From: Eledone cirrhosa
Taxonomy: Eukaryota
Reading direction: 5' to 3'
NCBI GenBank assembly: GCA_964016885.1
Contig: OZ024741.1
Coordinates: 166,718,001-166,782,000 of the forward strand
DNA length: 64,000 bases
Below the pieces are notes generated by a model, which was not told the DNA's origin, did no database searches, and worked only from the letters and a program-made list of their open reading frames with translations. This document shows, piece after piece, positions 12,783-45,800 of this stretch (position 1 is its first letter; every line of letters starts with the position of its first letter). The position numbers and the translations under genes were made by a program.

Positions 12783-12964
12783 ATGGCAGTAAAAGAGGCC
12801 CCTTTTGGAAAGAGGTCAGTCTTAAAAAGGCCGTCCGTAAGATATGATGACATGGAAGGACCTTCCAAAATTGACATGGAAAGACGTTCTATATCGTCCA
12901 CTGTGGCTGATGACTTAGAAAGAAACGACACGAATAAACAGGTTATTGTCAACCTTCAATATTG
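12783..12964 (+). CDS. MIEN1: MIEN1-like selenoprotein coding exon 1 (M1 to Y60 plus TG of C61)
   Basis: ATG in AAAATGG context. Ends ...GTTATTGTCAACCTTCAATATTG|GTAAAT donor. VIVNLQYC fits the first beta strand of the Rdx fold. Start codon uncertain (M1, M24 or M32, or an upstream exon). Confidence 0.8.
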
Positions 12965-15900: not shown

Positions 15901-18257
15901 AAGTTAAAACTAAAATGAATGCTTGAAAACAATGTTCTTTGAAAATAGAAATACAAAGAAATATAAAAGAGAACTGAAGTAAAAAACATTAAATGATAAT
16001 TATTTTTTTCATCAGGCTAAATTCCAGAAAAGGATATATATATATTAGTCTTCTGTACAATTTCCATCTCAAATACTGATAATATTTAATAAGAGAATAT
16101 CAAATCACATGTTTGTGATTATTGTTAAGGTAGTAAGAGTCCTTTTGTTGTTATATTTCTAATGAAATACACTCTATTCAGTTAATTAATGAAGAATTTG
16201 GAGGGGTTTACTAAAATTATAAATTATTTCTATAAATGTGGTTCTGATATAAAATTATATTGGAAGATTTTAATTTAAATAAGAATCCTTTAAACTGGGT
16301 GCTTTAGTTCAGTTTGGTATGAAAAAGGCTAACATCCTGTAATGATTTAGCAGAAAATATCTAAAAACTGGTTGGTTAACTTAGATGTTTAATAGTGTCT
16401 TTACTAATAGACAGATTGCTGTGAAAATTTGCAGTTATAGTGCTGTTTTGTACTTTTCAAGTATGCCTGGGTATTGCGGTTTCATGTTGTATGGGATTTC
16501 AAGGGTTAAGATATACATTTGGATTGCACCTACTTGTAGGCCTTTCACCCTTTTGATACCAACCTGCCCCAAACCACCCCAAATCTATGACAACTTTTGT
16601 TTTAAAGTATTCCTATTTGAATAAAATCTTATAGAAGAATATTTTTGTTAAGCTATGTACTAAATGTCAGCTTAATAATGTTTAGATCAGAGGTGTGCAA
16701 CATATTCCATTGGTGGGCCACTTTTTGAATATTGGAACAAAGGCCTTATCTTACATAATATCTCACATAATATTGAATCTATGAGATTTTGATATTATTT
16801 ATTTTGAGAACAATACCTTAAAGTCAGTATGAGGGGCCGGTTGGGATCAGTTTGAGCAGAAAAAGTTGAGAGAATTCTGGCCGGATATGGCCGGTTTAAA
16901 TGCTAAAGGGTTAATATTTATTAAGCATTATTCCAAAGATTCACCACAACTTCTATCCATAACAAGGAACCGAGAAATTATAACACACATAACCCTATCA
17001 GTGAAGTATAGGTCAACTAACAAAAAATTGTATTATGGTTACGAAAAAATTCTAAATAAGCCTACAAGGTAAAAATTAAAAACGGTCATCGTGGGCTGCT
17101 CTGACTGGTCTGGCAAGCCGGATTGTGGCCCATGGGCTGCCTGTTGCACACCCCTGGTTTAGATAGTTTACTAAATCCTTTCAAATTGTTGATTATTGAC
17201 AAAATTAATTAAAAAGCAGGTGGTGTATTTCATTAGAAATATGGCAACGAAAGGGTTCATCATTATCTTCTTTCCCACTTTGATTAACATGTCTCAGATT
17301 ATCCCCCTCCCCAGCCTCTTGTAATCCTTCTGAGATAGTATATGATTTTGTCTCATAGTGACACCTGAAGTAGTTGGAAACGTATGGAATCACTTCGTAT
17401 AGCCATCTACAGAGAGTTTCCTGAAGTCACCGTAGTAGACATAATTAACAAGAGACGTGGTAAGATCATTTTTTTTGTACATTGCCTCATACATTATTCT
17501 TACAGAGCATTGGTTGACTAAAAGGGTAATAGAGAGTATTATGTAAATAACTGTAGTATACTAAGTATTCTGTACATACCAATCTTTAGTATAACAGATT
17601 GCACATAAAGTTTAGTGTAGAGTTTAGAAAGAGAAACAATTGTGATGGTTAAAAGCATACTAGTTAGGACAGGGTGGCACAGCATAGTTTTGTATCAAAG
17701 GCTAATGAAATAAAACTACTTTCATGGTACAATATAGGATTCTATAGAATATTTCAACCACCAAGAACTTCAATAGAAATAGAACTATTAAATGAACTAT
17801 AATATATTATATAAAAGTATGTCATGCTGTGGAAGGGGGTTGGTAAGAGTGTTTGTGAAAAATATCAATTTAAAGTATAAATGCATAAAATATTTCATTT
17901 TGGTAGCTTCATTCATTAAACTTATTTTGTTGTGTAATATATATATAATCAAGTACTGTATATATTATTTGTGAGTATATTAGATTTATTTGATTTAACA
18001 AACAATGTACTAAGCTGAATTTTTGGCTTTTGAAGCGCTGAGAAGATATATATGTATATATATATATATATATATCTTCTCAGCGCGTCAAAAGATATGA
18101 ATTTCGATGTTAAATCGTATTCATACCCATTCAGGGTTCCTAATTAAACCCTTTACTTTCCTCTGAGCTTCTGAGGAGCCCAACTTGAGCGTAACATGTG
18201 TAAAAGCTCCTTATAAATATATTTTAGTGGTCTGCTTCTCTTTCTTCAATTTCTTCG

Positions 18258-18295
<38 letters not shown>

Positions 18296-21200
18296 GCTCA
18301 AGTGCAGAAATGCTATAAAGATACCTTATAAAATAGGGTGAACAACCAACCTTAAAAGATGGAAAAAGAAGTTGCAGCTGGCCACTATGTGGAAACGAAT
18401 CCCCATATCTTCCATATACTGGCTCGATGCTTTAACCATTATGCTAAGGAGCCTTGACAAATCCCTTCCTGTCATTTTAACTAGATAACTGGACAACTTT
18501 CAGATGTCAGCAAGCAGGCAGACAGACATCCACATCTAAACAAACAACATACAAAGCTGAATTTTTGGCATTTGACATGCTGAGAATATATGTATATATA
18601 TATATAAGTATAAAGAGTGTGTTCAAGTGTAGAAAGGCTATAAAGATAGCTTATAAAATAGGGTGAAGACCCTTAAAAGACAGAAAAAGAAGTTGCCACG
18701 GCCACTATGTATTATATATCTATCTATGCAATTAATTATATATTATTTGTGTGTATATATAGCTTATAAATAAAACATTTAAAATGTCATATTGTTCTTT
18801 GATATTTGGTGGTTGTTTCTGATTAAACTGGGGAATTTCCACAGGGTCACTAGTTATAATTATAGCTCGTATTTTGTGGTATTTGTATTTATGAGTAGGT
18901 TTTTTTTAGTCAAAATATTTAATAAAATTTAATTTATTCATATATTTATTTATCTTTGTCAGAAGCATGACTGTTTCCATAATTTTATTGCCTAATTTTG
19001 TTTTTGTATTGACCTATAACTCCATCATGAATCATAAGGGGTCCATTGTGACATATGGCCTATATTAGGCACTTTAAACTTGGCAGAGCCCATCATCTCT
19101 CCAGGTTTGAGCCCAACTGATTTCTTCCAGAGAATGAGAAAGTAAGAGGAAGAATCCACCCCAGTACTGGACTGGTATTTTCTTTTTTTATTGACCTCAA
19201 ATAGATGAAAGACAAAGTTGGTTTTGGTAGGATTTAAACTCAGAGAAGGCAGAGATGAAACGATTACTGCATACCATTCTATCTGATGTTCTAACGACTC
19301 TATCAATTCGCCATCGGATGACATGCTGTGTGGCATGTAGTTATGGCCCTTTACATTCTGAGTTCAAATCCTGCCTTTCATCCTTATGGGGTTGATTAAA
19401 TGAAGTACCAGTAATGCACTGGGGTCGATTTAATTGATTTTACCCTCCCCTAAAATTGTTGGCCTTGTGCCTAAATCAGAAACAATTATTTAAGAAATAC
19501 TCTTAATTCAAAGCTAACATTTTAAATTGTATCCTCTCAATTTTTAGGTGCCTTTGAAGTTAGCATTAATGGCAAGTTGGTTTTCTCTCGTCTTCAGTCT
19601 CGTATGTACCCTGAGTCTGAAATGGTCAGTATTTTCCATTTGATTAACCGTTTGTTTTTTTGTTTTCCTCATCATCATCATCATTTTAGGTCCACTTTTC
19701 CCTGCTTGCAAGGATGGGACGGGAACTGATTCTGGCTTGATTTCTACAGCTGGATGCCCTTCCTAACACCAACCTCATTTACAGTGAGTGCTGGGTGGTT
19801 TTTTGCCATGGCACCTCCACGACCACTTTGCAGTGGAATGATATGGACCCCAGTCCCTATCATCTCATTTCTACAGCTGAGTAAACTGGAGCAATGTGAA
19901 ATAAAGTGTCTTGCTCAAGGAAACAACACATCACTCGGTCTGAGAATTGAACTCACAACCTTTCGATTGCAAGGCCAATGCTCTAACCACTAAGCCATGT
20001 GCCTCCATAAACATGTAATCCCAAAAGAACAATGAAGGTATCTCATAATATGGTACTTTGTATCTCTGTTTCTTTATTATGTCTATCATTTTTTTATGAC
20101 ATTGTAATAGTGTTTGAATTGTTAAGAACAAATATACTTCTGCCACCAACTACAAACAAGATGTCTTGTCCATATTTACATCTCAGAGTTGCCACACTTT
20201 ATGTTGGCACTTTAACAGGTAGATCTGGTGAGATAGCAGAGATGCTGGAGAGAAGGCATGGATGTGTGCTGTGTGCAAGAGGTGAGATGGAGAGGTGCCT
20301 CTGCAAGACTAATCGCAAGCAAACATCGTAGTTATAAGCTTTTCTGGGTGGGTAATGATGATGGGTTAGGTGGGGTGGGCATATTACTGGTTGAGAGATG
20401 GATCAATAAGACAATAGAGGTGTTAGTGTTAGTAATAGAATAATTAAGCTTAGGTTAGTTGTAGGCAAGAGACTACTGACAATCATTTCTGCCTATACTC
20501 CCCAGGCAGGCCAAAGTAAAGAAGAGAGACTGCTTTTACGAGCAACTTTTACAGACAGCCTCAATGACAGAGACATCGTTATGCTAGCAGGGGACTTCAA
20601 TGGACATGTTGGACAGCTCCAGGATGGATACACTAGGATACATGGTAGGCACAGTTACGGCTCAAGAAATGAAGAATGGGTGAGGCTTCTTGAATTTTGT
20701 GATGCAAATGCACTAACCATTTGCAACACTAACTTCCAGAAGCCTACCAACCACCTAATAACCTACAAATCAGGCGAGCACATAAGCCAGATTGACTTCC
20801 TGCTAGTTAGACAGCGGGACAGACAGATGGTGTCAAATAATAAGGCATACCCTGGGGAAGAATGTACCCCACAGCATAGGTTAGTCATTAGTGACATCTC
20901 AGTAAGCAAGACAAAGAATGAGACATACAGGAAGGTGTGGAAAAGAAAGGTCTGGAAGTTAAAAGACCTTTCATTAAAATATAAATTTAGCAAAGCCCTT
21001 CAAGATGTGTACGATGAAAAAGAAGACGATTTAGAGTTGAATGACATAGATGATAACTGGAATTTCTTACATGACAACTTACTGCAGGCTAATGAAGAAA
21101 CTTGTGGTTGGGGCAGAGCTTCAACCAGACAGAGAGTGACCTGGTGATGGAACAGCACGGTAGATAGGGCCATTAGAGACAACAGACTGGCATGGAAAGC

Positions 21201-23699
21201 TTAGAAAATGGTGGGAGTAGAGAAGGATACACAGCCGCTAAGAGAGAAGCTAGACGTCAGGTGTACTTAGCACGCAGGGAGGCTGAGAGTAGGAGGTTTG
21301 CCAATGTTCTGCAATGGGAAGATCAGAGACGTGTGGTGGTCCGCATTGCAAGGCAGTGTGTCAGTGCAAATCAGGATGTTGTTGGAGATAAATGTTTCCG
21401 GAACGATGCTGGTGTACTTAGTGTCACGAACGATCAAAAAAAGGAGGCCTGGAAATGTCATTATGAGAGACTGATGAATGTAGAGAATGATGGGACAGAG
21501 AGGAATTACCCCCAGTAGACCTGACAGAGGGACCAGATATTGAGATTGATGAATATAGGGTACAAGAGGCAATTAAGGAGATGAAGAACGGTAAGGCTGC
21601 TGGACCGTCGGGGATAGTTGTTGAGATGCTGAAGGCATCAGGAGAAGTAGGCACTAAACTAGTTGCACACATCATTAATCAAGCTATATATGGTGGTGTC
21701 ATACCCAAAGACTGGTGCTGCAGTATTCTCATAAATTGCTACAAAGGTAAAGGGGATGCTCTAGAGAGGAGCAATGATAGGGGTATAAAGCTGATGGATC
21801 AGGTTATGAAAGTGGCAGAGAGAATATTAGCGCAACTGATTAAAGAAAGGGTAAAATTAGATGAGATGCAGTTTGGTTTTGTGCCTGGGAAAAGTACAAC
21901 AGATGCCCTCTTCTTAGTGAGGCAACTACAAGAGAGGTTCTTAGAGAAGAATAAGCCACTATACTTAGCTTTTGTTGACCTAGAGAAGGCCTTTGATAGG
22001 GTACCCCGATCTGTCATCTGGTGGTCCCTAAGGAAACTAGGTGTAGAGGAATGGCTTGTGAGGACAGTGCAAGCTATGTACAGGGGTGCTGTCAGTAAAG
22101 TGAGAATAGGAATGGAGTTTAGTGAGGAATTCCAGATAAAAGTAGGTGTACATCAGGGTTCGGTCCTCAGCCCGCTCTTGTTCATTATAGTCCTCCAAGC
22201 CATAACAGAGGAGTTTAAGACTGGATGCCCATGGGAATTTCTCTATGCTGATGATCTGGTTCTTATAGCAGAATCAGTAGCGGAGCTAGAGAATAAATTC
22301 TGGCTATGGAAACAGCAGTTGGAATCAAGAGGCCTGAGAGTGAACATAGCTAAAACAAAAGTGTTGATAAGTAGAAGAGAGGACAATACGCTGATTCCTT
22401 CAAGGAAATGGCCATGTTCGATATGTAGAAAAGGAACTGGCATAAATTCCATAAAATGTACGCAATGCAGATCTTGGGTACACAAGAGATCTAACAGGTA
22501 GGGAAAACTATGTATGCAGTAGATGTACAGGGAAGTTGGCAGTAGTAATCGCAGTGATAGACACATTTTTCCAATGCAGGTGGGTTCTATAGAAGTTGTT
22601 GATAGCTTCCGGTACCTAGGTGATCAGATTAGCATGGGAGGGGGTTGTTCTTAGGCCATGGTATCTAGAATAAGGATGGGTTGGAAGAAGTTTAGGGAGC
22701 TGCTTCTTCTGTTGACAAAGAAGGGTTTCTCTCTGCGTACGAAAGGACGGTTATATGATGCCTGTGTGAGATGAGCGATGCTGCATGGTAGTGAGACATG
22801 GGCAGCAACTACAGAAGATATGTGACGGCTGGAGAGAAATGAAGCAAGTATGCTCCGTTGGATGTGCAATGTCAATGTGCGTGAACGACAAAGCATAGAC
22901 GAGTTGAGAAAGAAACTGGGTATAAGAGGGATAAGTTGTGGTGTGCAGGAGAGAAGGCTGAGATGGTATGGACATGTGATGCGCATGGAGGATGACTGCT
23001 GGATAAAGAAGTGCCAAGAAATCCCAGTAGAAGGAAGACGCAGTAGAGGTAGACCACGAAAAACATGGGTGGAGGTATGAGAGCAGACCTCAGATCGCTG
23101 AAACTCACCGAGGAGATGACGAAGGACCGTGACAAGTGGAGAGATGCTGTGTTGAATAGGACCCGTCCAACCCTTGCAAACAGGGAAAAGCGGACGTAAA
23201 ATGATGATGAATTTTATCAACCCTTGAAGGATGAAAGGTAAGTTGACCTTGGTAGGAATTGAACTCAGAGTATAAAGAGCAGAAAAATGTCACAAAGCAA
23301 TATTAGTAATTAGACATAAATAGATAACCATAGTTTGACAGACAGACAAACAGATATATGTTGTTGGTTTTATTGTCTGAAGATCTAGGTAGATAGCTAC
23401 TGCTTGATCACTGATAATTTTATCAACTCTCTGATAGAGGAAGGGAGAAAGATATCAAATTCCCATAAATCTGTCATTTGACTGTTGTGTTTTATTATAC
23501 CGATATTCTGCATTTTTGTAATTCTGTCAGAAAGAACTCAATATTTCCTCAATGAATAACTTTTTGATTATTCTATATTAGTATTTAATTCTTTTCTTTT
23601 TTACAGATATTGAGTTTAATACGTGATGTCATGGCAGACAAACCAATCACCGCTCTTGAGGAAACTGAGACAAGCTGCTCGAAGTGCATTGCTTTATAA
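12783..23699 (+). CDS. MIEN1: Spliced 4-exon CDS of a MIEN1/Rdx12 (SelW2)-like selenoprotein, 150 aa, Sec at residue 64: join(12783..12964,17359..17459,19548..19624,23607..23699)
   Basis: All three introns are GT-AG and phases match (2,1,0); 182+101+77+93=453 nt. Translation: MAVKEAPFGKRSVLKRPSVRYDDMEGPSKIDMERRSISSTVADDLERNDTNKQVIVNLQYCDTUSSWKRMESLRIAIYREFPEVTVVDIINKRRGAFEVSINGKLVFSRLQSRMYPESEMILSLIRDVMADKPITALEETETSCSKCIAL*. Shows Rdx CxxU, GAFEVSINGKLVFSRL (human MIEN1 recalled as GAFEIEINGQLVFSKL) and a terminal CaaX (human CVIL). Confidence 0.9.
13250..13560 (+). mobile_element. CRE-like non-LTR retrotransposon 3' fragment (intron 1)
   Basis: AEERK..F.SVTIETLGFLG...WLMQLVSLVI resembles the CRE endonuclease C-terminus. 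Confidence 0.6.
13990..14190 (+). mobile_element. Mariner transposase C-terminal remnant
   Basis: HLSYSSGLAPCYCFLFPHTK..GIRFKS resembles HPPYSPDLAP.D..LF..LK..G.RF.S. Confidence 0.7.
14196..14381 (+). mobile_element. SINE inserted in the mariner remnant
   Basis: Family consensus; ATTATTTTGAAGG duplicated on both sides. Confidence 0.85.
14700..15065 (+). mobile_element. Degenerate RTE-type LINE 3' fragment
   Basis: QL*YYGHVVRM..R..GRP-like RT tail motifs. Confidence 0.5.
16688..17156. mobile_element. hAT (Charlie-like) MITE in intron 1
   Basis: TIRs CAGAGGTGTGCAAC and GTTGCACACCCCTG; 8-bp TSD GTTTAGAT. Confidence 0.85.
17359..17459 (+). CDS. MIEN1: MIEN1-like selenoprotein coding exon 2 with in-frame Sec TGA (17366-17368)
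   Basis: Acceptor ttttgtctcatag|T GAC ACC TGA AGT...; reading stays open after the TGA (SSWKRMESLRIAIYREFPEVTVVDIINKRR); donor G|GTAAGA. Confidence 0.9.
19140..19490. mobile_element. Two opposed SINE copies just upstream of exon 3
   Basis: Minus-strand older copy (19140-19315) and plus-strand copy (19315-19490). Confidence 0.7.
19548..19624 (+). CDS. MIEN1: MIEN1-like selenoprotein coding exon 3 (GAFEVSINGKLVFSRLQSRMYPESEM)
   Basis: Branch-point-like GCTAAC at about 19513, pyrimidine tract, ttttag| acceptor, ATG|GTCAGT donor. Carries the Rdx signature GxFE(I/V)xxNGxLxFS. Confidence 0.92.
20161..23208 (+). mobile_element. Near full-length decayed RTE-clade LINE (APE + RT) in intron 3, sense orientation
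   Basis: LRVATLYVGTLTGR, DVCCVQEVRW, AGDFNGHVG, SQIDFLL (APE). GKAAGPSG, QFGFVPG, AFVDLEKAFDRV, GVHQGSVLSPLLF, LYADDL (RT). Cys-rich CSICRKG..C..C..WVHK, RLRWYGHVMRM, (GAT)n tail. Multiple stops and frameshifts. Confidence 0.95.
23607..23699 (+). CDS. MIEN1: MIEN1-like selenoprotein terminal coding exon (ILSLIRDVMADKPITALEETETSCSKCIAL*)
   Basis: Strong acceptor ttcttttcttttttacag|, phase 0 matches exon 3, ends in CaaX CIAL then TAA (23697-23699). Confidence 0.88.
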   Translation: MLSLIRDVMADKPITALEETETSCSKCIAL

Positions 23700-24359
23700 A
23701 ACTAATTTGTCTATATAACACTGCTGCAATTATGTTAAAGCGTATACTCTCTGAGATTAAATTTTCTTCTTTCTTTCTAAGTTAATATATATTAAAGGCC
23801 TTGACTATCATATTTCTTTTCTATATCCTCATAACACAAATACCCAGGCTTATTGACTGGTTTATATTCCAGGATTATGTTCCATTGTAAAACCTGTCTT
23901 GTCTCAGTGAACACATCTACCCAGCATGTCTTGTTACTCTTACATATTACACACATATATTTCCACAATCAACAATAACAACAGTTAATCTCATTGAATG
24001 AGTTAAACTTATTGATTGGAGTTAGATCTTGTGATGTTTACTTCATTATGTATATTTAGGTAGCAGCTACTGCTACAAGCACAGGCTAATGATAAGAAAG
24101 GTGTTGTGATTGTATTAAAACATGTGTGTTGAATAAATGGTCATCCTTAATTCCATGTGACTTACAAATATGAGTGTTTATACTCGAACTTGGGAAAAAA
24201 TCATTCAAGTTCTTGCATGCATCATAGATGTGTTGTATTTATTATGTTGCTTCTTCACTAATTGAATAATAGACATTCATTATATTTTTTTGTTTCTATT
24301 TATTTCTATAATCATCTTGTCCCTTCTTTTCTCTGCTTCTGTTGTCTTTTTTTTCTCTA

Positions 24360-27300
24360 TCCTGGCTCCAATATTTTCCATGTCCATGTTTCTTTTTCTC
24401 TGATCCAATATTGTCCTTAGTCAAGTTTCTTTCTCCCTAATCCAATACTGTCCTTAGTCAATTTCTCTCTCCCTGTTCCAATATTTCCCATGTCCATGTC
24501 TCTCTCTCCCTGATCCAATACTTTCCTTAGTCAATTTTCTCTCTCCCTGATCCAATACTGTCCTTAGTCAAGTTTCTCTCTCCCTAATCCAATACTGTCC
24601 TTAGTCAGGTTTCCCTCTCCCTGATCCAATACTTTCCATGTCCATGTTTCCTTCTACTTGATCCAATACTTTACATGCCCAAATCTCTCTCTCCCTGATC
24701 CAATACTTTCCTTAGTCATGTTTCTCTCTCCTTGATCCAATACTGTCCTTAATCAAGTTTCTCTCTCCTTGATCCAATACTTTCCTTAGTCAATTTCTCT
24801 CTCCCTGATCCAATATTTTCCATGTCCATATCTCTCTCTCCCTGATCCAATACTGTCCTTAGTCAAGTTTCTCTCTCCCTGATCCAATACTGTCCTTAGT
24901 CAAGTAACTCTCTCCCTGATCCAATATTTTCCATGTCCATGTCTCTCTCTCCCTGATCCAATACTGTCCTTAGTCAAGTTTCTCTCTCCCTGATCCAATA
25001 TTTTCCATGTCCATGTCTCTCTCTCCCTGATCCAATACTGTCCTTAGTCAAGTTTCTCTCTCACTGATCCAATACTGTCCTTAGTCATGTTTCTCTCTCA
25101 CTGATCCAATACTGTCCTTAATCAAGTTTCTCTCTCACTGATCCAATACTGTCCTTAGTCATGTCTCTCTCTCCCTGATCCAATACTGTCCTTAGTCATG
25201 TTTCTCTCTCACTGATCCAATACTGTCCTTAGTCATGTTTCTCTCTCACTGATCCAATACTGTCCTTAGTCATGTTTCTCTCTCACTGATCCAATACTGT
25301 CCTTAGTCATGTTTCTCTCTCACTGATCCAATACTGTCCTTAGTCATGTCTCTCTCTCACTGATCCAATACTGTCCTTAGTCATGTTTCTCTCTCACTGA
25401 TCCAATACTGTCCTTAGTCATGTTTCTCTCTCACTGATCCAATACTGTCCTTAGTCATGTTTCTCTCTCACTGATCCAATACTGTCCTTAGTCATGTCTC
25501 TCTCTCACTGATCCAATACTGTCCTTAGTCATGTTTCTCTCTCACTGATCCAATACTGTCCTTAGTCATGTTTCTCTCTCACTGATCCAATACTGTCCTT
25601 AGTCATGTTTCTCTTTCCCTGATCCAATACTGTCCTTAGTCAAGTTTCTCTCTCCCTAATCCAATACTGTCCTTAGTCAGGTTTCCCTCTCCCTGATCCA
25701 ATACTTTCCATGTCCATGTTTCCTTCTACTTGATCCAATACTTTACATGTCCAAATCTCTCTCTCCCTGATCCAATACTTTCCTTAGTCATGTTTCTCTC
25801 TCCTTGATCCAATACTGTCCTTAATCAAGTTTCTCTCTCCTTGATCCAATACTTTCCTTAGTCAATTTCTCTCTCCCTGATCCAATATTTTCCATGTCCA
25901 TATCTCTCTCTCCCTGATCCAATACTGTCCTTAGTCAAGTTTCTCTCTCCCTGATCCAATACTGTCCTTAGTCAAGTTTCTCTCTCCCTGATCCAATATT
26001 TTCCATGTCCATGTCTCTCTCTCCCTGATCCAATACTGTCCTTAGTCAAGTTTCTCTCTCCCTGATCCAATATTTTCCATGTCCATGTCTCTCTCTCCCT
26101 GATCCAATACTGTCCTTAGTCAAGTTTCTCTCTCACTGATCCAATACTGTCCTTAGTCATGTTTCTCTCTCACTGATCCAATACTGTCCTTAATCAAGTT
26201 TCTCTCTCACTGATCCAATACTGTCCTTAGTCATGTCTCTCTCTCCCTGATCCAATACTGTCCTTAGTCATGTTTCTCTCTCACTGATCCAATACTGTCC
26301 TTAGTCATGTTTCTCTCTCACTGATCCAATACTGTCCTTAGTCATGTTTCTCTCTCACTGATCCAATACTGTCCTTAGTCATGTTTCTCTCTCACTGATC
26401 CAATACTGTCCTTAGTCATGTCTCTCTCTCACTGATCCAATACTGTCCTTAGTCATGTTTCTCTCTCACTGATCCAATACTGTCCTTAGTCATGTTTCTC
26501 TCTCACTGATCCAATACTGTCCTTAGTCATGTTTCTCTCTCACTGATCCAATACTGTCCTTAGTCATGTCTCTCTCTCACTGATCCAATACTGTCCTTAG
26601 TCATGTTTCTCTCTCACTGATCCAATACTGTCCTTAGTCATGTTTCTCTCTCACTGATCCAATACTGTCCTTAGTCATGTTTCTCTTTCCCTGATCCAAT
26701 ACTGTCCTTAGTCATGTTTCTCTCTCACTGATCCAATACTGTCCTTAGTCAAGTTTCTCTCTCCCTGATCCAATATTTTCCATGTCCATGTCTCTCTCTC
26801 CCTGATCCAATACTGTCCTTAGTCATGTTTCTCTCTCACTGATCCAATACTGTCCTTAGTCATGTCTCTCTCTCACTGATCCAATACTGTCCTTAGTCAT
26901 GTTTCTCTCTCACTGATCCAATACTGTCCTTAGTCAAGTTTCTCTCTGCCTGATCCAATACTGTCCTTAGTCATGTTTCTCTCTCACTGATCCAATACTG
27001 TCCTTAGTCATGTTTCTCTCTCACTGATCCAATACTGTCCTTAGTCATGTTTCTCTTTCCCTGATCCAATACTGTCCTTAGTCATGTTTCTCTCTCACTG
27101 ATCCAATACTGTCCTTAGTCAAGTTTCTCTCACTGATCCAATACTGTCCTTAGTCATGTTTCTCTCTCACTGATCCAATACTGTCCTTAGTCATGTTTCT
27201 CTTTCCCTGATCCAATACTGTCCTTAGTCATGTTTCTCTCTCACTGATCCAATACTGTCCTTAGTCAAGTTTCTCTCACTGATCCAATACTGTCCTTAGT

Positions 27301-27480
27301 CAAGTTTCTCTCACTGATCCAATACTGTCCTTAGTCAAGTTTCTCTCTCACTGATCCAATACTGTTCTTAGTCATGTTTCTCTTTCCCTGATCCAATACT
27401 GTCCTTAGTCATGTTTCTCTCTGCCTGATCCAATACTGTCCTTAGTCAAGTTTCTCTCTCCCTGATCCCATACTTTCCAT
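24360..27480. repeat. 37-bp minisatellite (CTGATCCAATACTGTCCTTAGTCATGTTTCTCTCTCA)n, about 84 units
   Basis: Period 37 (CTGATCC at 25212 and 25249). A block of variant units recurs about 1072 bp apart (24581 vs 25653). Confidence 0.95.
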
Positions 27481-27752
27481 GTCTGTGCTTTCCTTGGTCC
27501 TGTTTCCCTCACTCTATATTGTGTGTTCCAGCTGTCTTTTCTGTTATTTCTTCTTCAATATGATGGTGATGAATTTGTTTTGCAAGTTTTTTGGTATGGA
27601 ATCCTGGAATACTAAGGACAAAAAGTTGATAGTCAAGGCTGAACTCTAAATTATTGATAATTGTTTTTTCAAATTTTGTGTTTAACTTTTGTTAAACAAA
27701 AAATATTTTTTATTGTGTAATTTTAAACTTTTCACTTGGATTTCTTACTGAT

Positions 27753-27818
27753 TATTTCTGCCTATGAAAATACTGGTCTAAACCTCAATCGACCAGAGTT
27801 GGATAAATTTGAGAAATA
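27753..27818 (+). promoter_or_regulatory. SECIS element (type I) in the putative 3' UTR of the MIEN1-like gene
   Basis: Helix I TATTTCT(27753-59)/AGAAATA(27812-18). Core ATGAA(27764-68)/GGAT(27801-04). Helix II AATACTGGTC/GACCAGAGTT (9 of 10 paired). Apical AAA (27780-82) lies 12 nt after ATGA. Same strand as, and downstream of, the TGA-containing gene. Confidence 0.85.
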
Positions 27819-27856
27819 GCCAGTGAAAAACTCAACTGAAAATTATTTGTTTGGAG

Positions 27857-27862
27857 ATTAAA
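27857..27862 (+). terminator. Candidate polyadenylation signal (ATTAAA) just after the SECIS
   Basis: ATTAAA followed by a TG/T-rich tract. AATAAA hexamers also occur near 28836 and 28863. The region is AT-rich, so this is weak evidence. Confidence 0.3.
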
Positions 27863-28289
27863 TTAAAAAAAATTATAATGTGTCTGTATTTATTTTTTCT
27901 GAAATGTATTTTTGACAATTTTTTTTACCAACATGTTGCCCTTGCTATACTCCAAGACTCCAAGGTAACACTTTATTCTCTCTGTTGGGACATTGTGGAA
28001 GCACACACCTGGAGTTCTGCATCCTGGAAAAGCAGAGCGGACGAACTGTAGGGCATGTCAGCCTTTCATCAACTTGTTCATGCTGTTACTGTTGACCACT
28101 ACATACAAACATACATGTGTACATATGACACTATGAAGCTAAATTTTTCATGTAGAAAGTGTATGTACAAACATCAGTTAAATTGCAAAACTAATTGTTC
28201 AGATTTTGTTTACATTATGTATAAAATGTTCAATATTGGGACAAGTAGAGTGGGTGTGCAAATTTAGACAGTTGTATGCATACAGATCA

Positions 28290-28481
28290 CAGACTTGCCA
28301 ACCTCTAAAAACCCAAATGGGGAGTATCATGAAAAAAGTGCCCCAAAAATGGGGAGAAATGAGGCAAAATGTGAAGATTTTACATAATGAAAGCTATACC
28401 CATTTTCACAAAAATGGGGAGACAGGGAGAAATGAGCTAAAATGAGATCTCCCTGTCAGATAGGGAGAGTTGACAGGTCTG
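28290..28481. mobile_element. Non-autonomous TIR element with 6-bp TSD (same family as 4942-5289)
   Basis: TIRs CAGACTTGCCAAC and GTTGACAGGTCTG; TSD AGATCA. Confidence 0.7.
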
Positions 28482-28909
28482 AGATCATTGCAGTTGACTT
28501 CAAAAAAACATATGACTGCCCGGCATGGAAATCTTTAAGCTAACCTACCCTTCAGTGTGCTTCAACTATTTTTCAGATTTTGTATTAGAAGCTTCCTATC
28601 AGATTTCTGTGTGCACTGATATGGCTGTCACTCTCTTACCCACACTTTATAAACTCTGGTACGCCCCATTCTTCCTCCACAATATTAATAACTTGCTGAA
28701 GATAATATCAATTTTCATTTCCTTCCAAACTTCTGCACACACATTTATAACCCTCACAGCAGACCTGCATTGCCTCCATGAATTAGGATCTCAAAAGTAT
28801 TTTGCTGTTGGGACATAATCTTATTTCATTTAACCAATAAAGATACCTTTACAGCTGATGTAAATAAATCACTCGTATATCTCACCATCTCTAGTCTTGG
28901 ACAATACCA

Positions 28910-29790
28910 TCATAATCATAATCATTTAACGTCCATTTTCCCTGGTAGCAAGGGTTGGATGGATCTTCACAGACTGAATCAGTACTCAAATGGAGTCACT
29001 GACCTCTCCAATAAGCCGGGTGTCTGCATCTTGCTTATATACATTCCAGTGCTCTACCAAATGCATTTTATTCTTTAGATTCCTTACCCTCCGCTAAAGT
29101 TTCCTACATTTCTGATTTGCCACCCCAATATTTTCATAATTGTCTCTTATCTTTAATGACTGTCTATGTTACTGTTCCACCACCAGGTTACCTTTTGTCT
29201 AACTGGTGCCTTGCTCCAGCCATTAGTCAATAGCCTGTTGTAGGTTGTCATGTAAGAACTTCCAATTATCTTCCTCTATAATATGTTTATCCTGTGTGCA
29301 TCGTAGAGCTGAAATTAAATTTACAGAAAAGTCCTTTTGGTTTCATTCCCTCATTTAGATTTTCCTGTATGTTTGATTTCGCATGGTTTTTATTCTAATT
29401 TCACTAATAACTAATGTTCTTTGGTGCATTCTTTCTTGGGAAAGAACTTAGTTTTCACAACCATCTGTCTATTCAGTTTTCTAATGAACAAGAAATCAAT
29501 ATGGCTTGTGTGTTCACATGATAGGTAGGTGATCAAGTGGCTAGTTGGTTTCCTGAAGTTAGTATTGCAAATAGGTCATTTACAGCACAGAATTCTAGAA
29601 GCCTTGATCCTTCATTTTTTTAGCCATATCTATAGCCACTATGTACTCCAGTGTGCTGTCCAACATGTCCATTGTAGTTGTCAGCTAGAATGATGTTTAT
29701 AACAACATAAGGATTCTGTAGAAATGGTCTAATATAACACGCATAACAAAAGCATCGAGGTCCTTGCTGAAGAGCAACAAGAATAATTGA
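28910..29790 (-). mobile_element. Internally deleted RTE LINE remnant
   Basis: ILADNYNGHVGQ (APE) and an RTE-like 3' tail similar to 23140-23208. Confidence 0.7.
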
Positions 29791-30031
29791 AATGCCTTGC
29801 ATGTAAACAATTTAGTAGCAAACTATTTTTTAAGGAAAGTACTACAGACGGAAAATTCGTAAATACAATATATGTATATATATGGGCATGTAACTCCTGG
29901 TAGAGTAGTAAAGACACCGTAGTAACATATGGTGCGTCTTTGTATTTAAATCTGGTGGAGCCTATCCCCTATCCAGGTATAAACACAGCTGATTTCTTCC
30001 AGTGGGAGAGAGAGGAGAATGAGAGATATAT

Positions 30032-42832: not shown

Positions 42833-45800
42833 CTAGCAGTTTAGCCCGGCGTTGCTCGGGTTTATTCATTTGCTATGAAAAGTTACATACAGGTAAACGT
42901 GGCTTGAAAGCGAATAAGCTTATCAATTAAGTGCATAAAGCAGTTGAACCGGTTATTAAAAGTTACGAACGAATTACCATTTTGGACAATCAATGATGGG
43001 TTAATAATCTTCCAATAGCGAATTTAGCAGACCAAAGTTGCAAGATGGTGGCTCTGATGCCGCTGGGTGTCAGATCTGTCCGCCATGGGTGACCCTACCA
43101 GGAAATAGTTTTCCAGACGGCATAGCTCCAACACCGCCAACACCTGCACCAACATCTATAGCACCTCTTTGTAGACGATATTGCGTGTCATCCCTTGAGG
43201 AGTGTAAGCAAAAAGTCCATTCCTGCTCCCTACGCGGGAACAGGCAACATAAAGTTGACCATGGGAGAAGCATGGCTCCCATAAATGGATGCCCGCCACC
43301 GACAATGTTTGCACTTGTGACTTGTTAATGGACATAGCAAAACATGGTCTCATCGGGAATTGGGATCGCCGGAAATCGAACGGGATATCTGATGCCGAGC
43401 GGAAAAGGTTCATCCTTGGAATGAAAACATTCTCCCCTCTCCCGCACACCGTTACAATGGTGGCCTCAATAGAGTGGGGCGTCAGTAACTTGACGACCAT
43501 GCGAGTACAGTTGCACTGTTTGGTGGACGCAAGTTCCTTATTAGCATAATGAGACAGCCAACCCTAAGCTTAAGAATGTGAAGTGGGAGCCCTGGTGGCT
43601 CAAGGGAATTTAATAACTCAACCGGATAATTAACGATATCGTCGGGGTCTGACGTCCGGTCGATAGATTTGAAGATGTGCTCTTTACCGGGAATTTTCTC
43701 AATCAGCTGCTCGTTAATAAAATTAACCATGGTATTTTTCGGAGCAAGGATGGCTTTAAAGTTAGATGAGATATTAGGAAAAACTGCCTCCCAAAGGTCA
43801 GAAGGGCTGCTCACAATGTTGCACAGGGAGTCGATTGCTATGCCGCCCTTGTCATCCGCAGGGACCTTGCCCTCATCAAGTGCTAAAATGTTCTGAGCAA
43901 ATGCTGCAGAGATGTTGTCACCATGCAAATGGGCACGCATATTTGTGCTCAGGTACAAACTCTTCACCTGGGGCCACAACGTGGACGACTTAAGGCAGGC
44001 ACGCACTTCATCAGCTCTTGTCCCTTTGGGGATGACAGGCAGCGTTTGCCGAAAATCCCCTGATAGCAGAAGGGTTACGCCACTCATAGGAGCCGTAGAA
44101 TCCCTAATGTCTTTCAGGGTCCAGTCCAATGCCTCATTGGCACCCTTGTGTCCCATTGTGCACTAATCCCAAACAATGAGGCAACATTTTTTGAGAACCA
44201 GAGCTTCGTGTGAGCTCTTGCTGATATTGCATGTTGGTGTCTCAGTTTTTACTAAATCCAAGGGGAGTTTAAAGGTTGAATGTGCTGTCCTGCCTCTCAG
44301 CAGCAAAGTAGCAGCGATCCCGGACGATGCAACGGCCAACGCAATTTTTTTCTCCTGACGAATCTTAGCGGGAATCAATTGTGTTACAAAAGTTTTTCCG
44401 GTACCCCCAGGAGCATCGAGAAAGTATATACCCCCAGTCTGTTTTTGAACCGCGTCAATGATAGTTAAATAGGCCAACCTTTGATCCGACAGACGTTTGG
44501 GCTCATTTTCCTCTAAGTATTGGGAAAGAGATTCGATGTCATATGCTGTTTCCCGCAACAAATCTCGATATCAATGAGTGCCCTGTTGTAGATAATGCCG
44601 CTGTAAGCAACTTCCACTGAAGGATACTGCAGATCAGCCAGCCGGAGGAAATCCTCAGACATGAAGTCTCTGTACTTGATCCATAAAGATTTGGGATCAC
44701 CCAATTCACACTTTTGAAGCAAAATGGCAAAGAGTTCCCGTAGACCTTTAGGTGATTTCAACAAAGTGAAATCCCATTGCGAATCATCTTCCAAAAGACC
44801 ACGCTTAAAGCAGGCTTCTCGGTACGTATCACATATTTCTCCATCAACAGTTTTGATGTCCTGAAAACTTTGTGGGCCTACAACTTCATGCAGGAGAAGG
44901 CGGAGATGAAAGCACTCATACTGACTTGGGGGCACAGTGTAAACCCTTCCAAGACAGCTGTCAAATTTTACACCAGGATGACTTTCTTCGCACCCAAGTG
45001 TTTTTCGACCATATAAAGTCGGATGGAACTTGGGGGTACACAATTGTTTGCACAAATGTATCGAACAGGCAAAGTTTGAAGAAACCCGACTGAGTGGTCT
45101 CTTTCGGATCGGCGGCCAACTTGGCGGCGGTTTGGTCCGTAAAATAAACTCTTTGCCCATTTTCCAAATGTACCGCAAGCTGTACGATAGCGGGGTGCCG
45201 TTGGTGTAGGGGGAAACTAAATAGGCGCCAAAAAGCTTCATTGCTACTGATGTACCGCCCCGCCAGGTATTCTGTGACCTCATCAGAGTCCGTTTTTACA
45301 TATTTGCATATGTATTTTATTGACTTGACGGAGTTGCAAAACTCAACGTTGACGTGGGCGTTGAACATCTTCAAGAGAAGCGAGCAGTAAGAGACCACCC
45401 ATCTATTGTCGACTTGACCTCCCTTTACTGTTGTGGTGAAGCCACCGCTCTAGGGCCGTCTCCGCCTGTACAAGGGGTACCCATCGCCACCAGTCTGAGT
45501 CTCGTCAACAAATTTTTTTGGGTATCCCTTACTGCACGACCCCCCTTTCAGACACGTGTGATGCTCATTAGGACCCGACGCACACGGACCATGTTAGCTT
45601 TGACGATGTCATGTAATTCTTGGTCAGTTGCTGGGTTAGGGATTTCAGCCGAAATGAAGCTGTCTATGGCATTTGAACTGATTTTATCAGCTAACCAAAT
45701 CAAAATGTGAGCATGTGGCAGCCCTCGTTTTTGCCATTCGACGGTGAACATGTCACATTTTACAGCCCCAAATACCTGACCTTTTTATTAAAGCCATGAG

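Follow-up and report, generated by a model that had tools for sequence, protein, structure and literature searches.

The tandem G.A core of a SECIS element is a kink-turn to which SBP2 binds; together with eEFSec and Sec-tRNA, SBP2 brings about the insertion of Sec. Elements of form 1, as represented in Rfam family SECIS_1 (RF00031), combine a helix I, an AUGA/GA quartet, a helix II about 10 bp long and, in the apical loop, an unpaired AA 11-13 nt past the core, with a poly(A) signal shortly after. In mammals, the distance from UGA to SECIS runs from 207 to 5,207 nt with a mean of 872 nt, and the 3′ UTR of DIO2 averages 5,174 nt (extracts of PMC3316567). The same extracts report that the 3′ UTRs of vertebrate SelH, SelT, SelV and SelW are split and that their last exon contains the SECIS. 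For SELENOS and SELENOP, 3′ variants lacking the SECIS are known (PMC5133445, in extract). In lamprey SELENOP2, a CA-rich tract of about 1,500-1,800 nt lies between two SECIS elements, and the relevant section of PMC13134290 gives its significance as unknown. Of the Rdx proteins, MIEN1 (Rdx12, C17orf37) has a thioredoxin-like fold and ends in the CaaX motif CVIL (PMC3527542, in extract), and invertebrate members group in a Sec-containing SELENOW2 branch (PMC13134290).

The DNA analyzed here is a window of 64 kb (64,000 nt) from Eledone cirrhosa, whose features are collected in Table 1. On its plus strand, a hairpin is very probably the SECIS of an upstream Rdx gene, to which it is assigned because the gene needs one, because it is the only good candidate and lies on the same strand, and because ATTAAA signals and a GU/U-rich tract follow it. 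This upholds the preliminary description, which had taken the hairpin for the recoding element of that gene. Most of the 4 kb that separate the SECIS from the stop codon are due to a 3-kb tandem repeat, which appears to have expanded there. With this element recognized, the selenoprotein gene can be annotated correctly; pipelines are prone to cut such genes short at the UGA or to overlook them, since SECIS searches often cover a limited downstream distance. A literature search of open-licence papers found none on cephalopod SECIS elements.

Table 1. Features of the Rdx selenoprotein locus (window coordinates)
Feature	Position	Strand	Description
Rdx gene coding exon 1	12783..12964	+	start ATG, first strand of the Rdx fold
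Rdx gene coding exon 2	17359..17459	+	in-frame TGA 17366-17368; AG/GT borders from sequence
Rdx gene coding exon 3 (Rdx core)	19548..19624	+	Pfam, TIGR02174 and PDB matches; 25-aa fragment
Rdx gene coding exon 4	23607..23699	+	CaaX motif CIAL, then TAA 23697-23699
Proximal unique 3′ UTR	23700..24384	+	685 nt; weak possible splice donors
37-nt minisatellite	24385..27478	+	83.9 copies, 3,094 nt, 71% C+T on the sense strand
Higher-order tandem duplication in array	24549..26692	+	24549-25620 and 25621-26692
SECIS (form 1, helix I extended)	27745..27826	+	core 27753-27818; AUGA 27764, AAA 27780, GA 27802-27803
Likely distal 3′ end	27857..27900	+	ATTAAA 27857 and 27862, GU-rich/U-rich tract from 27879; from sequence only

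The preliminary description had listed a helix I of 7 bp, an ATGAA/GGAT quartet with tandem G.A, a 10-bp helix II with one mismatch and an apical AAA 12 nt after the ATGA, and each of these recurs when the hairpin is read pair by pair. Helix I consists of seven Watson-Crick pairs (27753-27759 with 27812-27818) and continues outward through a U-G pair (27752/27819), an A.C mismatch (27751/27820) and six further pairs (27745-27750 with 27821-27826), giving an extended helix that is paired at 14 of its 15 positions. The core is a UGAN/NGAN quartet with tandem G.A after a purine, in which AUGAA (27764-27768) faces GGAU (27801-27804) through U27765.U27804, G27766.A27803, A27767.G27802 and A27768.G27801. 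Helix II joins 27769-27778 to 27791-27800 with nine of ten positions paired, one of them as U-G, and a single mismatch, A27772.A27797. The two helices are separated by an internal loop, and the apical loop of 12 nt carries its AAA 12 nt past the AUGA. As in form 1 elements, this AAA is unpaired in both the MFE and the centroid structure, and there is no additional mini-helix. A region of 91 nt around the hairpin has an MFE of -20.9 kcal/mol (z -3.2), and none of 200 shuffles is equally stable. With local folding, in which the pair span is held to 150 nt or less, both helices form with probabilities of 0.83-1.0 in all four sequence contexts.

How specific this structure is was assessed with a SECIS descriptor of our own, whose thresholds for an equally good match were taken from the 27753-27818 element itself. 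In the 64-kb window, the element is the single plus-strand match, and the minus strand holds one match, at 62206, which is weaker by the same descriptor. Among 1,000 dinucleotide shuffles of both unique UTR flanks, 16 contain any descriptor match and none an equally good one. The absence of an equally clean candidate nearer the stop, as first noted by eye, also holds: a loosened scan of 23700-27478 gave no candidates, Rfam likewise gave none in the proximal UTR, and a single weak candidate lies at 27569 (7 of 10 pairs, -3.5 kcal/mol). Separately, a weaker descriptor match occurs in intron 2 (19134-19194, plus strand) and four weak ones occur in intron 3. These SECIS-like stretches, as well as that at 62206 on the minus strand, would be useless to the spliced mRNA.

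A covariance model had been proposed as a check on the element, and its outcome is divided. The SECIS_1 model aligns over its full length (model positions 1-64), at 26.7 bits, but does not reach the RF00031 gathering score of 35 bits, which is a curation threshold and stands for no biological feature; the element is no curated Rfam member. The match has an E-value of 0.0076 in 801 nt and of 0.13 in 13.5 kb, both over 4227 families, and SECIS_1 is absent among the 150 of 242 Rfam matches listed for the entire window. In contrast to the RF00031 members, the hairpin scores below the gathering level, extends its helix I and contains an A.A mismatch in helix II, while it shares with form 1 the remaining features named above, including the poly(A) signal shortly after. 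In its structure and position it is a standard form 1 SECIS, and its mechanism is presumably the standard one. The miRNA matches that Rfam returns in the window are microsatellite artefacts.

The gene upstream, in a model read from the DNA, consists of four coding exons with GT-AG borders that join into a frame of 150 codons with one internal TGA. Exon 1 ends within the codon for the first Cys of a CxxU motif, C-D-T-U (codons 61-64), which follows the first strand as expected for an Rdx protein; the TGA is codon 64, the fourth residue of the motif. The hairpin lies on the same strand as this UGA, which aligns to the Sec/Cys site, and 3′ of it. Past the TGA, the frame stays open for 86 further codons across three exons to its CaaX end. 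The intact frame, the CxxU and the CaaX argue for production of a full-length protein.

The family assignment comes from searches with exon 3 alone as the query. Aligned to profile positions 43-66 of 74, exon 3 matches Pfam Rdx (PF10262) with an E-value of 2.7e-4 (21.5 bits against a cut-off of 22.6) and TIGR02174 (CXXU_selWTH) with an E-value of 3e-6 (27.4 bits against 34.2). These scores fall just below whole-protein cut-offs, as would be expected of a 25-residue query. Its sole PDB match is human MIEN1/C17orf37 (2LJK; E 0.0071 over 21 residues). No Pfam or NCBIfam match was found for exons 1, 2 and 4, no PDB match for exon 2 alone, and no homologue for the 60-aa peptide of exon 1 or for exon 3 with its in-frame intron flanks; the last three are weak negatives from short queries. 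The first 50 or so residues, encoded by exon 1 (12783-12930), form a charged N-terminal extension, rich in Ser and Arg, which has no relatives in the profile and homologue searches.

By these features, the gene appears nearest to SELENOW2/MIEN1 and is here called SELENOW2/MIEN1-like; a closer relation to this subfamily than to SELENOW1, SELENOT or SELENOH is tentative. It resembles MIEN1 in the CxxU after the first strand, in the exon 3 match to 2LJK and in a C-terminal CaaX followed directly by the stop (CIAL here, CVIL in human); by analogy with MIEN1, the CaaX end may be prenylated. It differs from SELENOW2/MIEN1 in its 150 codons, its N-terminal extension and a diverged exon 2. Amniote MIEN1 has Cys, whereas the Eledone cirrhosa gene has a predicted Sec.

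An element about 4 kb downstream of the stop codon and, with it, an unusually long 3′ UTR of about 4.1 kb had been proposed at the outset. The measured distance of 4,053 nt bears out the first; the second is not upheld in that form, because 3,094 nt of this genomic distance (76%) are minisatellite, which leaves 959 nt, an ordinary spacing, without the array. Spliced, the distance from UGA to AUGA would be 4,325 nt with the array and 1,231 nt without it. Both values fall within the mammalian range, so that neither distance is outside what is known. That 4.1 kb of UTR would be carried in the mRNA is read from genomic DNA. As in the DIO2 mRNA, the SECIS lies several kilobases from the UGA, but, unlike in DIO2, a single tandem array fills most of the intervening distance. 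The nearest precedent for such repeat padding is lamprey SELENOP2, with its long low-complexity tract in a selenoprotein 3′ UTR. There the tract is dinucleotide-rich and lies between two SECIS elements of a multi-Sec gene, whereas here a 37-nt minisatellite, itself organized at a higher order, precedes the only SECIS. A search of open-licence literature for minisatellites lying between a stop codon and a SECIS gave no paper.

The array is degenerate at both edges and homogeneous in its interior, where two blocks of 1,072 nt, each with 29 units, stand head to tail and differ at three positions. Together, the degenerate edges, the homogeneous interior and the duplication point to expansion in place, possibly with length variation of the array or a duplication in the assembly. 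Between 24385 and 27478, there is no poly(A) hexamer and no SECIS candidate, and the anchor motif of the array is absent from the rest of the 64-kb window. An origin of the array from the 5′ arm of the SECIS is no more than a lead: the best alignment, chosen post hoc, has 18 of 25 identities and is equalled by 17 of 738 other 82-nt windows.

The two ATTAAA signals and the GU/U-rich tract stand 40-80 nt past the SECIS and likely mark the distal 3′ end; such an arrangement is usual for a last exon that stops just beyond its SECIS. The hairpin being the SECIS of the gene and the array being carried largely intact in the main mRNA are, taken together, the reading we favor with reasonable though limited confidence. 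The last exon would then start at 23607 and continue without splicing to cleavage near 27875-27890, leaving the minisatellite in the mRNA, where it would serve largely as a passive spacer. Unequal exchange would have expanded the CU-rich 37-mer in situ within a UTR that until then measured about 1.1 kb, with the 1,072-nt duplication as the latest step of growth; array length would probably vary between haplotypes. Folding locally, the hairpin would bind SBP2, and eEFSec and Sec-tRNA would insert Sec at UGA 64 (17366) of this SELENOW2/MIEN1-like gene, to yield a prenylated thioredoxin-like oxidoreductase of the CxxU type. The SECIS would still work at this distance because it folds locally and because SECIS action tolerates kilobases. 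Should the mRNA contain the array, and should array length vary between individuals, the locus offers a natural allelic series for relating the length and content of a spacer to Sec insertion.

The strongest alternative, in itself unlikely, keeps the same SECIS and gene and adds an intron in the 3′ UTR that removes most of the array, for a mature UTR of about 1 kb. The split 3′ UTRs of vertebrate SelH, SelT, SelV and SelW (PMC3316567, in extract) provide a precedent. Most array units contain a CTGAT about 18 nt before a CTTAG; the CTGAT is, in our own reading, branch-point-like, which would make the array a run of weak 3′ splice-site look-alikes. Candidate donors lie at 24060, 24101, 24124, 24157 and 24904, the last a donor-like site in one variant array unit. 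Against this, no strong donor is present, with no GT[AG]AG in 23691-27760. In a crude count of matched consensus positions, the best cryptic UTR donors reach 5 of 7 and the three donors of the gene itself 4, 4 and 5 of 7; the counts overlap, and the cryptic donors are therefore not separable from genuine ones. An intron lying at least 360 nt past the stop codon is, moreover, expected to trigger NMD.

Public sequencing runs bear on this intron and on the assembly. Four runs of one study, none of them recorded as RNA, were compared over 27470-29900: X1-X3, which derive from one sample and are DNA-like, and X4, from a second sample whose type is not on record. In X1-X3, the array edge, the SECIS and the downstream DNA lie in one contig with no differences from the window; this is probably the window's own sample, and the runs hence check the assembly at this array edge only. 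X4 gives one contig of 418 nt over 27470-27856 at a depth of 5.6, with the differences G27717C, A27719T and A27751G. At the AG sites 27531 and 27632 it is continuous, and such jointless passage over unique AG sites into the array speaks against the UTR intron, provided that X4 is RNA.

By their length, the contigs of X4 and of X1-X3 overhang by 31 nt into the array, to 27439, the position of the first unique 31-mer after the array; six further occurrences of its 30-mer lie at 24856-26742, where another base comes next. The overhang suggests that X4 holds inner array units too, which, if X4 is DNA, says nothing about the mRNA. The X4 contig ends at 27856, adjoining the two ATTAAA signals. Of 30 bins, 14 have depth in X4 and all 30 in X1-X3. 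An RNA run would look like this; the pattern, which comes as contigs from one study and from a run of unrecorded type, is not counted here. Of the words of 23607-24350, X4 contains a fraction of 0.51, where 0.59 would be expected with a donor near 24060 and 0.69 with an end near 24130. The value fits a donor, an early end or full cover with polymorphism or drop-outs, and decides nothing.

Two further alternatives appear about equally doubtful, and more so than the intron. In one, the array is over-represented in the assembly, for example because two haplotypes of the 1,072-nt block were placed in tandem, and the UTR measures about 3.1 kb at most. The near identity of the blocks is what allelic copies would show, and in the flank 3 of 387 nt differ between X4 and the window. 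Minisatellites, however, normally undergo higher-order duplication through unequal exchange, and removal of the duplicate would still leave about 2 kb of array. That short-k contigs break at the array edge weighs neither for nor against over-assembly.

In the other, most transcripts end at 24114/24132 and hence without the SECIS, so that they are either translated only as far as UGA 64 or degraded, and the long form is minor or regulated. Upstream of the SECIS, poly(A)-signal hexamers occur at 23756, 23791, 24114 (ATTAAA) and 24132 (AATAAA), the last a perfect signal against the ATTAAA variants of the distal site, and SECIS-lacking variants of SELENOS and SELENOP (PMC5133445, in extract) set a precedent. 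Yet AATAAA is frequent in AT-rich DNA, with further copies at 28836 and 28863, the downstream GU/U-rich tract is clearer at the distal site, and the intact frame with its CxxU and CaaX tells against a transcript class that stops at the UGA.

A role for the array beyond that of a spacer is less probable still. Under this proposal, which we regard as very unlikely, the array in the mRNA would act as a length-variable dial on selenoprotein output: array length and the base at 27751 would jointly set Sec insertion. As improbable is its mechanistic form, in which some 80 CU-rich units compete for the 3′ strand of the SECIS and part the proximal poly(A) site from the SECIS. With unlimited pair span and the array included, ViennaRNA displaces helix I of the window allele in favor of array-to-SECIS pairing by 5.8 kcal/mol, the displaced part being the purine-rich 3′ strand of the SECIS, paired with array units, in a folding model that takes no account of the G.A core, of SBP2 or of folding during transcription. 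The X4 allele keeps helix I at a probability of at least 0.9 under the same unlimited span. The complementarity between array and SECIS is no better than chance in controls. An action of the array as antisense decoy of the SECIS was rejected as not specific, its duplex of -19.9 kcal/mol being equalled or beaten by 8.9% of 1,517 window 32-mers and by 21% of 500 shuffles.

The base at 27751 is of interest for the hairpin itself. None of the X4 differences falls in the SECIS core, helix II or the AAA; G27717C and A27719T lie 5′ of the hairpin, and A27751G turns the A.C mismatch into a G-C pair, which yields a helix I of 15 bp and lowers the folding energy from -19.9 to -26.9 kcal/mol. As a structure-compatible change in one low-depth contig (5.6x), it is anecdotal. 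Either an allele or an A-to-I edit would explain it, the former being at least as likely because the other two differences are of non-editing types. A paper on A-to-I editing and SELENON exists (PMC9076623, in extract).

It is highly improbable that the hairpin arose by chance or is left over as an orphan, with a TGA that truly ends translation and a gene that is truncated or dead: although the SECIS_1 score lies below the gathering level and single-exon searches retrieved no orthologue, no shuffle gave an equally good hairpin, the single plus-strand match in 64 kb stands just 3′ of a CxxU gene, and the frame runs open past the TGA through three exons to a CaaX.

The window contains several other elements, in a repeat landscape reminiscent of coleoid cephalopods. 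A tRNA-like stretch in intron 3 (19940-19997, minus strand; Rfam tRNA 28.1 bits against a gathering score of 29) is probably the head of a SINE. Intron 3 also holds a broken LINE (20410-23200, plus strand) with frames of 245 and 336 aa from stop to stop, which we take to be endonuclease-like and reverse-transcriptase-like, and a similar LINE 3′ fragment lies at 50803-51615 on the minus strand. Several broken frames at 43156-45710 (minus strand) presumably belong to a Helitron Rep/PIF1 helicase, and a GTT/AAC-type trinucleotide array of about 3 kb, open in several frames, occupies 57100-60150. About 450 nt past the likely poly(A) site, 28290-28480 is a dispersed element of very high copy number with short internal repeats, over which the summed contig depth reaches about 1e5 in X1-X3.
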